Assembly (NCBI GenBank): GCA_046538485.1
Contig: JBKHIT010000007.1
Coordinates: forward strand, 1-64,000
Direction of reading: 5' to 3'
DNA from: Candidatus Brocadiia bacterium
GTDB lineage: Bacteria; Planctomycetota; Brocadiia; SM23-32
Length of the DNA stretch: 64,000 bases
Every line of letters starts with the position of its first letter. Position 1 is the stretch's first letter. The position numbers and the translations under genes were made by a program. This document shows positions 1 to 5,733 of the stretch, piece after piece. Under the pieces are notes generated by a model. It saw nothing but the letters and a program-made list of their open reading frames with translations, ran no database searches and had not been told where the DNA came from.

Positions 1-395
1 TAAAAAGAACCGTGTACCGTAGAACAAAGTGTCAACTTAAAGCTAGGACTTGACAGTCGGACGCGGCCCGACGGGCCGATTGAGAGAGTAGCCCCGAGAT
101 GTTGGAGTTTTCATTTATCGTCCTCAGCCGCCCCTTCGGGACGGGTATTTGTTGGTGACCTGCCATCCCCCGACTCCCGCTGGTCGCCGGGGGCTACGCA
201 CTCAGAAGCCCCTTTCAGGGGCTATTTCTCTCGGGCCGGATGACTTTCGCGGGCAATTTAGCGCTCCGAAGGAGTGCTTGAGAGCATAGCCCCGTGCGAA
301 GGCGGCGAGAGCCGCCGGAGTTCGGGGTTTTTGGTGTGAACAAATAAAACGCGGCCCGACGGGGCGCTTGAGCATGAACTTAGAGAAAGGATCAG

Positions 396-839
396 ATGAG
401 TCATACGAAGCTTATTTATCATTGCACATTCAGTACGAAGGGCCGGGTAGCATCTCTCTATGATGATATGCGATCGCGTCTCCATTCCTATATGGCGGGA
501 ATCATAAATAATGATTTCGGAATAGCTCGGGAGGTGAACGGGATTGATGATCACGTTCATATTTTGTGCGACATCAGGCCCGCCCACGCTATCTCGGATG
601 TGATGTCGAAGCTCAAGTCGCAGTCATCAGGATGGATGCATGAGGAGTTTCCGAATCTGAGTGATGTATGCTGGCAGGAGGGATATTCGGCGTTTTCCGT
701 GAGCAGATCCGTGGTGCCGAAGGTAAAGGAATACATTGAGAATCAGGAGAAGCATCATAAAGGGATGTCCTTCGTGGATGAGTTGCGGAAGTTGCTTGAC
801 AGGCACGATATCGAATATGATCCAGAATATTTGGTATGA
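396..839 (+). CDS. tnpA: HUH/Y1 tyrosine transposase, IS200/IS605 TnpA / REP-associated (RAYT) family
   Basis: 147 aa; YHCTFSTK, HUH motif DHVHIL, KLKSQSSGW, WQEGYSAFSVS, catalytic Y in EYIENQ; RBS gaaagga. Confidence 0.92.
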   Translation: MSHTKLIYHCTFSTKGRVASLYDDMRSRLHSYMAGIINNDFGIAREVNGIDDHVHILCDIRPAHAISDVMSKLKSQSSGWMHEEFPNLSDVCWQEGYSAFSVSRSVVPKVKEYIENQEKHHKGMSFVDELRKLLDRHDIEYDPEYLV

Positions 840-1740
840 ACGGTCGGTTTGGGTTCTCTCAGCCGCCCCGTCGGGGCGGGGACTTATTGGCGACTTGCTA
901 CCCCCGACTCCCGTTGGTCGCCGGGGGCTACGCACTCACACGCCCCTTTCAGGGGCTATTAACGGCGCGAAGTAGGGCTTTGTTGAGGTTGCCCCCAGCC
1001 CGAAGGAACGGTGTGAGGGCGACTTACGGCGATCCGTCGAATCGTTTTCCCTCCGGCCCGAAGGGCCCATTGAGAGAATAGCCCCGTGCGGAGGCGGCGA
1101 AAGCCGCCGGAGTTCGGGGTTCATGGTGGCGCGAAAAACGCGTCCCGACGGGGCGCTTGAGAGGGAACCGTGGATCGAATCACCAATTTAGATTTCCCCG
1201 GCCTCAGCCGCCCCGTCGGGGCGGGGACTTATTGGCGACTTGCCATCCCCCGGCTCCCGCTGGTCGCCGGGGGCTACGCACTCAGTGCCCCCTGCGGGGG
1301 CTTTTACCTCCGAGTGGCGAGTTTCTATGAGGGTTGATAAGCACTCCAGAGGAGTGCCTGAGAGAGTAGCCCCGTGCGTAGGCGGCGAGAGCCGCCGGAG
1401 TTCGGGGGTTTTGGTGTGAACGAAAAAAACGCGTCCCGAAGGGGCGCCTGAGTGAAAACTGGCACCATAAATGGTAGTTTGATGTTCCCCGTGCTCAACC
1501 GCCCCGTCGGGGCGGGGATGTGCTGGCAACGTACTAATCCCCCGACTCCCGTTGGTCGCCGGGGGCTATGCTCTCAGGTGCCCCTTTCAGTGGCTGTTCA
1601 ACGCTTCGAGGGAGCGGACAGTTTCCGCGCGCTCACCCGCGGCGGGATCACCCGATCACCCGGGGCGATACTCTGAGTGCCCCCTTCGGGGCCGAGCGTC
1701 CAGAAAACTTCGACAGTACAAACACGAAGGAGCAAAACAG

Positions 1741-2184
1741 ATGAGTCATACGAAGCTTATTTATCACTGCACATTCAGCACGGAAGGGCGGGTGGCGGCT
1801 CTCTATGATGATATGCGCCCGAGACTTCATTCCTATATCGCAGGTATGATCAACAACGATTTTGGTATAGCGCGTGAGGTGAACGGAATCGATGATCATG
1901 TGCATATTCTGTGCGACATCAGGCCTAATCATTCTGTATCGGATGTGATGTCGAAGCTCAAATCGCAGTCATCAGGATGGATACATCAGGAGTTTGCAAA
2001 TCTGAGCGATGTTTTTTGGCAGGAGGGGTATTCAGCCTTTTCTGTCAGTAAGTCTGTTGCTCCGAAGGTCAAGGAATATATCCAGCGTCAGGAAGAGCAT
2101 CATCGAAGGAGGTCTTTTGTTGATGAGTTGCGGGTGTTGCTGGAAAAACACGACATAGAATATGATCCAGAATATTTGGTGTGA
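1741..2184 (+). CDS. tnpA: Second HUH/Y1 tyrosine transposase (RAYT-like), paralog of 396-839
   Basis: ATG at 1741 after RBS aaggag (ORF track start 1552 runs into repeats); 147 aa, 23 substitutions vs copy 1 by manual alignment; HUH and catalytic Tyr intact. Confidence 0.92.
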   Translation: MSHTKLIYHCTFSTEGRVAALYDDMRPRLHSYIAGMINNDFGIAREVNGIDDHVHILCDIRPNHSVSDVMSKLKSQSSGWIHQEFANLSDVFWQEGYSAFSVSKSVAPKVKEYIQRQEEHHRRRSFVDELRVLLEKHDIEYDPEYLV

Positions 2185-2778
2185 CGGTTCGTTTCGTCCA
2201 GGGGCTCGTTTGCGCTCCGACGGAGCGTCTCAGAGTGTAGCCCCGTGCGGAGGCGGCGTCAGCCGCCGAAGTTCGGGGATCAAAGGAGCGAACAAAAAAG
2301 GTGCGTCCCGAAGGGGCGCTTGAGAGGGAACCGGCGCATCAAACCATCACTGTAGGCTCCCTGAGCTGAACCGCCCCGTCGGGGCGGGGATTTGGGTGCG
2401 ATCTGCCAACCCCCGACTCCCGTTGGTCGCCGGGGGCTATGCTCTCAGGTGCCCCTTTCAGGGGCTGGTTGACGCTCCGACGGAGCGTCTCAGAGTGTAG
2501 GCCCGTGCGCAGGCGGCGACAGCCGCCGAAGTTCGGGTCGAGGATGTGGAAAAACTGAATGCGTCCCGAAGGGGCGCTTGAGAGAATCTCGTAGAGCAAA
2601 TGATATTTTTGCGTTTTCCGCACTCAGCCGGCCCGGTGCGGGCCGTAGCAGTGCGCGTCTATCGGCTCAGGGGTTGTGGCAGGGCTCCTGGAGTTGTCCA
2701 ATTCCTGAGTTTTTCTTACAATGTTTTACCCCCAATATAGAAATGCATGGGCGATTTTGTTTTCAAGGAGAATACCTG

Positions 2779-3759
2779 GTGAGCCAGCAAAAGACTGCAT
2801 TGGTGACGGGTGCCGGTGGCTTTATCGGCAGCCATCTTGTGAACTATCTGGCTGACAAAGGATACCGGGTTTGCGGAGTGGATACCAAAAAGTCGGAGTT
2901 CATGGAAGTGAATGCCGACGAGTTTCTGCTCCGGGATCTTCGGGAATGGGACGATTGTCTTGAGGTGTCCCGAAATGTCGACGAAGTCTATACGCTGGCG
3001 GCTAATATGGGTGGGATCGGTTTTATTGAAAGTGTCCATGCACCCATCCTGCATGACAATGTTCTTATTAACACGCACATGATCGAGGCCGCTCGGCGTA
3101 ACGGTGTTGAAACGTATTTCTATGCGTCATCGGCCTGCGTTTACCCAACATTCATGCAGGAGGACTCAGATGTCCCCGGCCTGAAAGAAGATGATGCATA
3201 CCCGGCTGATCCCGATAACGAGTACGGATGGGAAAAACTTTTCACCGAACGAGTCTGTCTTTCCTATGCTCGCGACTACGGAATGACGACGCGGATTGCT
3301 CGGTTTCATAACATCTACGGCCCACAGGGGACCTGGCGAGGGGGAAGAGAAAAGGCTCCGGCGGCCCTGTGCCGTAAAGTCGCTGAAACTCCGACCGGAG
3401 GCGAAATAGAAATCTGGGGGGATGGCGAACAAACCCGCTCTTTCTGCTATATCGACGATTGTCTCAAGGGTATCTACCGGCTGATGCATTCCGATTGCGC
3501 AGAGCCACTGAATATCGGGTCGGATGAACTGATCAAGATCAACGATCTGGTGGATCTCATCGCAGATATAGCGGGCAAGAGACTGGAAAAGAAACATTTG
3601 CTCGATAAGCCGCAGGGGGTCAGGGGCCGCAATTCAAACAATGATAAGATTAAAGAAGTTCTTGATTGGGCACCGTCCACATCACTGCGAGAGGGGTTTG
3701 AGAAGACCTACAGGTGGATTGAGAAGGAAGTGAAAAGAACCAGAGGTGAGGACGATTGA
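2779..3759 (+). CDS. NAD-dependent epimerase, GDP-mannose 3,5-epimerase-like
   Basis: GTG after aaggag; TGAGGFIG, ASSACVYP, YGWEK, RFHNIYGP, GREKAPAALCRK. Confidence 0.9.
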   Translation: MSQQKTALVTGAGGFIGSHLVNYLADKGYRVCGVDTKKSEFMEVNADEFLLRDLREWDDCLEVSRNVDEVYTLAANMGGIGFIESVHAPILHDNVLINTHMIEAARRNGVETYFYASSACVYPTFMQEDSDVPGLKEDDAYPADPDNEYGWEKLFTERVCLSYARDYGMTTRIARFHNIYGPQGTWRGGREKAPAALCRKVAETPTGGEIEIWGDGEQTRSFCYIDDCLKGIYRLMHSDCAEPLNIGSDELIKINDLVDLIADIAGKRLEKKHLLDKPQGVRGRNSNNDKIKEVLDWAPSTSLREGFEKTYRWIEKEVKRTRGEDD

Positions 3760-4017
3760 AGAAGGGCAAAATCGCTTGGAAGTAAATGGCATTGAAGGAC
3801 GAGACACGATGAGCGAAGAAGAACGTTGCATTTGTGACATGGGGAATTAAAGCAGAAGGCAAGCGGGAGATCTACCCAGGGCAGGGGACAAAGAACGGCG
3901 ATGGCAGAGGAAGAAAAACGAGGGACAGAACAAGAGCCATTCTGATTAAAGGGGCGACATCCTCTTTGGGCTACCACCAGCTTGACTTTTCTTGCACAGA
4001 AAGTTTACCATTCGTAA

Positions 4018-4290
4018 CTAGTGGTCCGTTCCATTTGATTTTGGTGGTTCAGAGCAATTCTGCCGGGTCAGTTCGAGGCGCGGCGCCAAAGGTGACCCGG
4101 ACGGGTCCCTGCGAAGCCGCAACGAAGAAATGACCCGGCAGAATTGCTCCCTACGGGCCGGACGGCGGCGGCCCATCTGCGGCGTTGCAGTTCGGCGTGG
4201 ACCCACTTGGGTCGAACTTCTCACTGCACCTTGCATCTGAACCACCGACGACCGGCTGAACCCACAAAATCAAATGGAACGGACCACTAG
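4018..4290. mobile_element. MITE-like non-autonomous element
   Basis: 35-bp terminal inverted repeats (4018-4052 / 4256-4290, first 26 bp perfect) with CTAG at both ends; internal 19-bp inverted repeat 4052-4070 / 4131-4149; no transposase. Confidence 0.8.
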
Positions 4291-4317
4291 ATATTTTATC
4301 CGGGGTAAATACAGGGA

Positions 4318-5733
4318 GTGATGAAGAGAGCTCTACACTCAGCAAAAACTGCCAACGCTTTTGCCGATTTGTTTTCGCTTGTCATCGCGTGGGTCGCTGG
4401 ATATGGGGTACGCTTTCACGCTACCAAACTGCTGGCGGGAAGCTGGGAGGGATTCAGCTTGTTCCGCTTTTGCAAGCATATGAAACTGTTACCCATCGTC
4501 CTTATTGTCTACATGGTGGCCTACGGACTGTGTGGTCTGTACCGTTGGAACCGCACGACGCTGTCGATCATGAGGTTCATACGGCTGCTGGAAGCTTCCT
4601 GTGTCGCCTGGCTCGCCATGGTTGCAGCTCTCTATTATTATAGCCGCTATACTTTCAGTCGCGGTATGTTGCTAGCTTTTCTGGTGATCTGCCCTTTTAC
4701 CGTCTTTTTGAGCCGGGAATTGGTCGACTATCTGCTAAAGAGTATCTATCAAAAAGATAAATGGATCAGAAAAATCGCCATACTCGGCACTGGCCGTCTC
4801 GCACGGCGTATACTGAATACAGTCCAGCAGGAAATATCCTCTCCCTGTAAAGTCGAATATCTTCTCACTCTCGATCCAGAAGAATTGTCCGAAACACTCC
4901 TCGGGAAACCCATAAAAGGGTGGGTAGGGGATGTGGAAAAGTGCCTGGAAGAGAACTCCGTGGACGTAGTGCTCGTAGCATTGTCCGCCGAAAATATGCA
5001 AAGGCTCGGAGAATTCCTGAACGAACTCGGGAAACTGCCAGTCCAGGTGGGATTTGTGCCCGATGTCAGCGGAATCTTGACCGTGGACCTGGAGGTAATA
5101 GAGCTCGATTCTCTGCCCATTATCCAGATTTATGGGCGGCCAGTCACGGGACTCAGCGCTTTTGTGAAAAGAAGCCTGGATTTGGTTGGAGCCACCTCTA
5201 TGCTACTCGTTATGGGGTTCCCGATGGTGCTGGTTGCGCTAATCATTAAGTTAACCAGCAAGGGGCCAATTATTTACCGGCAGAAACGCATGGGACTGGG
5301 AGGTGACGTTTTTAAAATGCACAAATTCCGTACAATGCACCCGGACGTCGAAGCCGACTCGGGACCTATCTTCGCCAGCGAGAAAGATGCCCGTCGAACG
5401 CGTTTCGGTTCTTTTTTGCGTCGATTCAGCATCGATGAGCTTCCCCAGTTGTTCAACGTCATCAAAGGGGACATGAGCCTCGTGGGGCCACGACCCGAAA
5501 GACCGCACTTTGTGCGGCGCTTCTCCCGCGCTCTTCCCAGCTACATGCTGCGGCACAAAGTAAAAGCCGGGATTACAGGTTGGGCGCAGATTCACGGTCT
5601 CCGTGGAAAGACCTCAATCCAGAAACGGCTCGAATACGATTTGCACTATATTAATCACTGGTCTTTTACTCTGGATTTTCTCATCCTGCTGGTGACGCCC
5701 CTCGCCGTTTTATTCCACAAACATGCCTACTGA
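4318..5733 (+). CDS. Undecaprenyl-phosphate glucose phosphotransferase (WcaJ-like priming glycosyltransferase)
   Basis: N-terminal TM helices; KRSLD, KFRTM, SIDELPQLFNVIKGDMSLVGPRPE, GITGWAQ, DLHYI. Confidence 0.92.
   Translation: MMKRALHSAKTANAFADLFSLVIAWVAGYGVRFHATKLLAGSWEGFSLFRFCKHMKLLPIVLIVYMVAYGLCGLYRWNRTTLSIMRFIRLLEASCVAWLAMVAALYYYSRYTFSRGMLLAFLVICPFTVFLSRELVDYLLKSIYQKDKWIRKIAILGTGRLARRILNTVQQEISSPCKVEYLLTLDPEELSETLLGKPIKGWVGDVEKCLEENSVDVVLVALSAENMQRLGEFLNELGKLPVQVGFVPDVSGILTVDLEVIELDSLPIIQIYGRPVTGLSAFVKRSLDLVGATSMLLVMGFPMVLVALIIKLTSKGPIIYRQKRMGLGGDVFKMHKFRTMHPDVEADSGPIFASEKDARRTRFGSFLRRFSIDELPQLFNVIKGDMSLVGPRPERPHFVRRFSRALPSYMLRHKVKAGITGWAQIHGLRGKTSIQKRLEYDLHYINHWSFTLDFLILLVTPLAVLFHKHAY

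Follow-up and report, generated by a model that had tools for sequence, protein, structure and literature searches.

The window analysed here, a stretch of 64,000 nucleotides (nt), covers positions 1 to 64,000 of contig JBKHIT010000007.1 (assembly GCA_046538485.1, Candidatus Brocadiia bacterium) and contains at 61-2643 two Y1/HUH nuclease genes, tnpA1 and tnpA2, embedded in an ordered array of inverted repeats: B'-A-B-tnpA1-A-B-A-B-A-degenerate-tnpA2-B-A-B-A' (Table 1). The alternating order with five full A and five full B units, pointed out in a preliminary description of the locus, is present in the sequence, as are the two hairpins and central stem-loop ascribed to each unit, which are seen in the 10 full units. 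The repeated unit is a module of about 100-110 nt, comprising a small hairpin, about 24 nt, a large stem with a TAG foot and a further small hairpin. As detailed below, enzyme and module form a conserved pair, in which each enzyme lineage stands beside its own unit family.

Judged by their sequences and structural models, the twin genes are members of TnpA-Y1 subclass 1.2, i.e. IS200-related (IS, insertion sequence) enzymes predicted to be dimeric, and not REP-associated tyrosine transposases (RAYTs; REP, repetitive extragenic palindrome). Both open reading frames (ORFs) retain an intact HUH motif (H53-V-H55) and the tyrosine Y113. The NCBIfam model for IS200/IS605 TnpA (NF033573) is matched at 73 bits (cut-off 55); the NCBIfam RAYT model gives tnpA2 24.7 bits against a cut-off of 80 and leaves tnpA1 unmatched. 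The motifs YIENQEKHH and YIQRQEEHH, DHVH and WQ fit the subclass 1.2 pattern (Y---Q--HH, DH[IV]H, WQ), with W93-Q94 invariant across 44 homologues. Further likenesses to this subclass are the length (147 aa, as compared to about 148 aa), the occurrence in few, non-identical copies and the C-terminal tail: the Pfam core stops at 117 and two more helices are modelled. In a quick tree of 88 proteins, computed with neither bootstrap nor a named 1.2 reference from Quentin et al. and leaving out 3 broken rows, 2 short ones and 5 duplicates, the twins fall within a 70-row group (Shimodaira-Hasegawa-like approximate likelihood-ratio support, SH-aLRT, 86), apart from annotated IS200/IS605 TnpA (90) and RayT (89), and are sisters (SH-aLRT 99) inside an 8-row clade of the host's family. 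The RAYT/TnpA-REP membership assumed earlier is rejected in view of the model scores, of Y---Q--HH in place of Y---NP and of the tree.

The predicted monomer, with a predicted local distance difference test score (pLDDT) of 90.7, finds its best Foldseek matches in the ISDra2 and IS608 transposases (E 1e-8), that to TnpA-REP (4ER8) being weaker (E 4e-5). A homodimer model scores 0.82, the best of three controls reaching 0.00, with 98% of contacts shared between runs and a pLDDT of at least 88; its predicted interface involves the first strand, the last strand and the tail. Of solved pairs 20 of 30 attain the mark for a dimer, as does 1 of 23 single chains, and the pass may echo the solved IS608 and ISDra2 dimers. 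TnpA-REP of E. coli is a monomer, whereas the IS200/IS605 enzymes are obligate dimers (PMC3479197).

The twins share 84.4% protein and 81.5% DNA identity. Their synonymous divergence (dS) of 1.055, together with a nonsynonymous divergence (dN) of 0.084 (dN/dS 0.08), indicates an old duplication of which both copies have been conserved; 8 of the 23 amino acid differences are concentrated in residues 104-124, which surround the catalytic helix. Of the 87 loci with a match, whose flanks mostly extend 1.5-2.5 kb, this one alone has two genes. The genome (G000 below) holds three intact subclass-1.2 genes (84% and 62% identity) and a broken one, with no near-identical copies. It also encodes Y1 genes of other classes, at G000:C99, C90, C109 and C77, two of them with Y---NP-type motifs.

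Read in a common orientation, A and B units both follow the order CTCA - small hairpin - 20-30 nt - large stem - CTA - 4 nt - CTCA - small hairpin. A units are mutually 81-91% identical and B units 76-87%, while A and reversed B units share 55-67% identity (shuffles: mean 50%, maximum 58%). Given the same motif order and the fact that the A model matches B units, A and B are two subtypes of one module, comparable to the y and z REPs of a bacterial interspersed mosaic element (BIME). Thus, the opposite orientations of A and B hold as first described, but the two are homologues rather than separate families.

Table 1. Features of the array. For repeat units, the strand is the one with the TAG foot 5' of the large stem, which is the predicted active strand.
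Feature	Positions	Strand	Description
B'	61..97	+	truncated unit: small hairpin, TGAG, GTAG foot, first bases of the large stem
A1	123..223	-	full three-hairpin unit
B1	261..372	+	full three-hairpin unit
tnpA1	396..839	+	147 aa Y1/HUH nuclease, subclass 1.2; DHVH, WQ, YIENQEKHH, C-terminal tail
A2	858..957	-	full unit
B2	1054..1161	+	full unit
A3	1203..1302	-	full unit
B3	1341..1450	+	full unit
A4	1494..1595	-	full unit; one small hairpin has a mismatch
degenerate module	1632..1694	-	A orientation: large stem decayed and lacking the TAG foot, then intact small hairpin
tnpA2	1741..2184	+	147 aa paralogue of tnpA1, under purifying selection
B4	2213..2324	+	full unit
A5	2366..2466	-	full unit
B5	2473..2582	+	full unit
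A'	2623..2643	-	lone outer small hairpin and CTCA/TGAG motif, right end of the array

Hidden Markov models of A and B return 63 matches in the genome and none in the reversed genome, so that the genome-wide search called for earlier finds units well beyond the array: 35 more lie at 24 loci outside it, 33 of them outside long ORFs. A gene flanked by inverted units that are also dispersed agrees with the REPtron-like working with its own composite repeat that had been suggested. The third intact gene (G000:C7:319-756, 62%) is surrounded by its own unit family, D, and the broken fourth gene (G000:C80:19140-19490, with an internal loss and a frame change) stands beside family C, the most numerous one. 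Families D and C number 79 and 99 copies at E<=0.01, and 43 and 80 at 30 bits or more, counts in which weak matches may cross-match between families. Three enzyme lineages in this genome are each found beside a repeat family of their own. A/B units also cluster with family C: 11 of their 24 loci have a family-C unit within 1 kb (null mean 2.3, maximum 9 in 2000 draws), a pattern to be anticipated if units insert beside one another. Adjacent pairs of the same family are arranged with feet inward in 17 cases, feet outward in nine and in tandem in two.

The same association recurs in other genomes. Using a descriptor of stem, CT[A/G] and small hairpin, searched within 450 nt of the gene, the module was found near 44 of 67 genes of the subclass-1.2 clade and near 1 of 13 IS200/IS605 genes, related loci among them not being independent. 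The hosts belong to Planctomycetota, Acidobacteriota, Lentisphaerota, Pseudomonadota and a Cloacimonadota-related lineage, along with unnamed metagenome contigs. Modules number 1.70 per kb in the vicinity of the gene, as compared to 0.084 at a distance and 0.021 in shuffled sequence, and 63 of 84 gene-side occurrences face outward. The outer hairpin, which the descriptor does not demand, accompanies 68 of 78 modules, at 21-26 nt in 59 of them, against a background of 4%. The large stems differ freely across families, with 29 different 5-bp cores. Among 40 relatives, the gene was found in 13 (match at E<=1e-20).

Two observations on individual loci may be added. In the closest relatives, at L038 (G003) and L037 (G021), gene and units lie in an apparent restriction-modification region, and similar methylase-like coding pieces, as read from the sequence, adjoin them in both. 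At L094, on a plasmid of Streptococcus salivarius, one stem-CTG-hairpin module stands after an IS200-proper tnpA, the sole case among 13 subclass-1.1 loci; this may be a hint that the module arose from an IS200 right end.

The 3' part of the module is the Rfam orphan Acido-Lenti-1 (RF01687), described as a large stem, CUA, a linker of ~9 nt and a small hairpin (Weinberg et al. 2010, PMC2864571). The module differs from this RNA description in having one more hairpin, ~24 nt upstream, and in being DNA-like on the opposite strand. Units of L082 and L007 and one family-C unit of G000 reach the Acido-Lenti-1 gathering score (37 bits), whereas the window units went unscored: an Rfam scan of window positions 1-4500 at E<=1 gave no match. 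They have longer inner loops, and all 10 full units keep the geometry of stem - CUA - linker - small hairpin. Hence, the composite three-hairpin architecture claimed for the repeat stands, whereas its status as a family of this system's own has to be broadened, the module being Acido-Lenti-1 plus one hairpin and spread over several phyla.

Several features single out the strand opposite to that of Rfam. On this strand, 57 of the 78 distinct small-hairpin loops read G-N-A or G-N-N-A, as against one of 78 on Rfam's strand, and such G..A loops occur in 16 of 18 protein clusters. They include GTTA, GCTA and GTCA, none of which is a GNRA loop; loops readable as the RNA cUNCGg tetraloop on Rfam's strand number 20 of 78. 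The closing pairs of the 52 three- and four-base G..A loops are C:G in 45, T:A in seven and G:C in none, matching the stability order of d(GNA) loops in DNA (PMC3201870). The same strand bears the nTAG foot at the 5' base of the large stem, paralleling the GTAG of REPs: here the large stem is preceded by GTAG or ATAG, and over the 18 clusters the feet are GTAG (9), ATAG (9), TTAG (5), CTAG (5) and others (4). In all 10 full window units the nTAG strand folds more stably as DNA, and the fold z of two units is -2.6 and -3.1 on this strand, against -1.3 and -2.0; a count of large-stem mismatches (three G-T, five A-C) was uninformative. The loop chemistry on the strand opposite Rfam's thus points to single-stranded DNA, and the sequences suggest that Acido-Lenti-1, labelled 'of unknown function' in an October 2026 preprint (bioRxiv 10.64898/2026.10.21.760802), may really be a mobile DNA repeat that has been read on the wrong strand.

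The array is polymorphic. Contigs of run X1, which may be the source sample, match most of 26-3600 without difference, and run X2, from another study, contains fragments of the two genes and of many units, with between 0 and 7 differences in each listed fragment; among the contig pieces listed, none spans the whole array. In X2 a B-type unit stands at the tnpA1 stop codon in place of A2, and an X5 contig departs from the window sequence at the same place; therefore, the array differs between populations. A further X5 joint, at 1447-1741 (depth 2), maybe reflects another paralogue and was left unused. Sister genomes offer a comparison in the genus of G045, where the gene occupies one locus in 6 of 7 genomes examined. 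At fixed intergenic positions, of which 7 were compared in 6 of 11 regions, a doublet may be there, be missing or have been replaced. One clean site is filled in G116 and G122 and empty in G056, G078 and G115, with ends no more than about 2 nt from the outer base of the large stem; cut sites are not derivable from these sister-genome ends. We treat this case as an analogy because the family is large-stem-only and the enzyme 40% identical. Tandem repeats of 7-9 nt directly adjoin the large stem or unit on its outer side at L102, L095:17400-17700, L121 and L133 and in flanks at G000:C39, C71 and C84; some resemble the first bases of the stem, and they are a possible footprint of nick-primed slippage.

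We propose, with a probability of about two in three for the outline apart from the nicking step, that these loci represent a REPtron-like system on a second enzyme branch. Subclass-1.2 TnpA would be a host-retained descendant of IS200/IS605 transposases, and the ~100-110 nt units would be its non-autonomous, single-stranded DNA substrates. Starting from the observed enzyme-module pairing, the active form is very probably a folded single strand of the order small hairpin - linker - nTAG - large stem - ~24 nt - small hairpin, with small hairpins whose C(GNA)G or C(GNNA)G caps would fold fast in DNA. By analogy with TnpA-REP and IS608, the large stem may be bound and the TAG foot may serve as the guide for a nick at a nearby CT or CA via Y113, the AG of the foot selecting CT or CA; we regard this step as rather doubtful. 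Such selection of CT/CA sites by the AG of the foot operates in TnpA-REP (PMC8266576, PMC3479197), where Q95 helps to hold GTAG and A3-G4 alone pair with the cut site (PMC3479197). The CTCA motif had also been considered as an IS608-type guide or cut site and was rejected when the IS608 pairing rule failed across families. As the enzyme is predicted to be dimeric, two units might be held together and their strands swapped, as modelled for strand exchange between the units of BIMEs (PMC3333891). Such a swap, with one active unit per strand, would excise and re-insert modules or A-B doublets, lengthen chains, replace spacers and favour landing beside existing units. The gene itself would rarely move, being cargo between units; here it was presumably duplicated once, long ago, within its own array, with purifying selection keeping both copies.

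The parallels to the E. coli REPtron comprise a single-locus HUH gene inside alternating inverted repeats of two subtypes, intergenic dispersal, a TAG-ending foot 5' of a hairpin and mosaic, polymorphic arrays (PMC3333891, PMC3479197, PMC8266576). The differences lie in the enzyme (Y---Q and a predicted dimer, as opposed to a Y---NP monomer) and in the repeat: a three-hairpin unit of ~105 nt replaces the single hairpin of 20-40 nt, the first foot base is free (GTAG, ATAG, TTAG, CTAG) and the feet often point inward in doublets.

A number of findings weigh against this proposal. The full module is wanting at 23 of the 67 subclass-1.2 loci, several of which have a large stem alone or nothing. 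At the genome level co-occurrence is weak, with Rfam matches in 9 of the 13 relatives that carry the gene and in 10 of the 27 that lack it (p 0.058), and G011, a 95% complete genome, has 28 Rfam matches and no gene detected even by an alignment search. Since E. coli strains that have lost tnpA-REP still carry REPs (PMC3333891), such gene-less genomes weaken the pairing but do not refute it. In G003 the unit was seen beside the gene alone, and spreading is therefore not general. The CT[A/G] after the stem belonged to the search, and is present in 46 of 121 candidates when unfiltered. The outer-hairpin loop is GAC, not GNA, in four of the five A units of the window. The G045 sites other than the clean one are ragged or expanded by 7-9-nt tandem repeats, and no covariation of guide and cut site emerged across families.

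Other explanations fit parts of the same evidence. The gene could be a slow but still autonomous IS200-type element that transposes together with its flanking units, the dispersed units being dead derivatives similar to PATEs and the twin an old tandem insertion. PATEs are non-autonomous derivatives of IS200/IS605 elements, and the enzymes here do resemble those of IS608 and ISDra2 in fold, catalytic residues, the modelled dimer interface and a hairpin-plus-guide logic. The class 1 sequence, the structural matches and the predicted dimer would all be explained, as would the patchy distribution among the 40 relatives with varied neighbourhoods and the overlap of the first unit with the stop codon in several of them. 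We nonetheless consider it improbable. The preliminary description had contrasted the locus with a simple IS200, and this is borne out: many units are dispersed, the genome has no near-identical gene copies of the kind that would mark a mobile IS200 (only the 62% and the broken one besides the twins), the twins are approaching saturation at silent sites (dS about 1.05) under long-term purifying selection, and the locus is constant across the sister species of G045. Moreover, IS200/IS605 ends act on one strand (PMC3333891), whereas units flanking a gene usually lie on opposite strands, and the single pair of IS ends reported absent is indeed missing. No tnpB-sized ORF, likewise said to be lacking, lies between the array and the downstream epimerase gene, which a sugar transferase gene follows; the left side is unseen because the contig begins at base 1. 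Quite unlikely, too, is that the units are functional structured RNAs, as small RNA, mRNA stabiliser or terminator, with the enzyme a bystander or past vehicle. Homologous units do reach the Rfam gathering score, repeats persist in genomes where no gene was found, only two of the 35 dispersed units lie inside long ORFs and REPs have RNA-level roles; yet DNA-type caps outnumber the RNA tetraloop readings, both unit orientations occur at one locus and the linkage with a single-stranded DNA nuclease gene is tight. Of the three roles put forward earlier, production of structured RNA is the least likely.

The directly repeated small hairpins, instead of the large stem, might be the recombination sites of an ordered cassette exchange, in which modules and genes stack in an integron-like manner through right-end-like cuts just 3' of each small hairpin. 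Chains of hairpin-stem-hairpin-stem-hairpin with a common middle hairpin in several families, and motifs that are alike 3' of both small hairpins within a family, agree with this. It is kept alive by the copy at G000:C87:12478, consisting of a flank and one hairpin, which is the exact product of module loss between two CTCA motifs. This product is single and also explicable by slippage at a short direct repeat, and Bacteroidota relatives with the same enzyme subclass have large-stem-only units, which makes this explanation very unlikely. A long shot of somewhat different content is a dimeric HUH cassette exchanger: the array would be an actively rewritten register, with hairpins as recombination sites, modules, spacers and enzyme genes as cassettes, and paralogues that split the A/B work or heterodimerise. 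If true, it would be a host-kept, sequence-reprogrammable system for cutting and joining single-stranded DNA, distinct from both IS200 and RAYT. Finally, the array stands at a contig start in a fragmented genome and none of the listed pieces spans it, but an assembly artefact, raised at the outset as a possibility, or chance is hardly conceivable: units and genes are all mutually diverged, pieces recur in X2, from another study, and the same architecture is seen in dozens of genomes. The difference of the two genes at 18.5% of bases and the X1/X2 pieces argue against a collapsed or doubled assembly.

With regard to published systems, Table 1 of Quentin et al. (2018, PMC6006769) enters subclass 1.2 as 'no' for REP, and the subclass is given as generally without terminal structures. 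A term search of their Table S1 gives '1.2' as energy values alone; similar GGTAG-CCC stems are listed there for a subclass 2.6 gene (PMC6006769). What distinguishes the present loci from the published subclass is the conserved three-hairpin partner repeat and, here, the two genes in one array. A literature search, with most subscription journals outside its coverage, found no report of subclass-1.2 repeats or of a link between Acido-Lenti-1 and a transposase, and a text search for the sequence motifs gave unrelated matches alone. New here are the twin genes under selection, the three enzyme-repeat pairs of a single genome, the strand and DNA evidence, and the rearrangement between populations. 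If the REPtron-like reading is true, an IS200-type transposase would have been domesticated a second time, independently, to maintain repeats, and this within a subclass described in print as repeat-free; the abundant orphan Acido-Lenti-1 would be explained as a DNA element on the other strand and one hairpin longer. It is difficult to account for the spread of REPs by the E. coli enzyme, which is monomeric (PMC3479197); from a dimer acting on a defined three-hairpin substrate, directly visible circles and strand-transfer products would be expected, and three enzyme-repeat pairs plus a twin in one genome suit tests of cross-specificity.

Some minor features of the window remain. Within the long A2-B2 spacer (958-1053) lies a further GC-rich segment, hairpin-like and similar to the beginning of B2, possibly the remnant of another unit. 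A promoter and terminator scan did no better than shuffles (2 vs 1.4 and 4 vs 3.1, respectively), and among the runs listed as containing the sequence none was of RNA. Positions 1-55 are the end of another mobile or repeated element: the identical 54 bases begin contig C43, different sequences come after them in X2 and X5, and the left end of the array occurs without them in X2. At 4015-4293 lies a separate repeat of ~273 nt resembling a miniature inverted-repeat transposable element, with terminal inverted repeats of 34-38 nt and at least 15 copies of 86-99% identity, one of which adjoins a truncated B unit at G000:C40:425.

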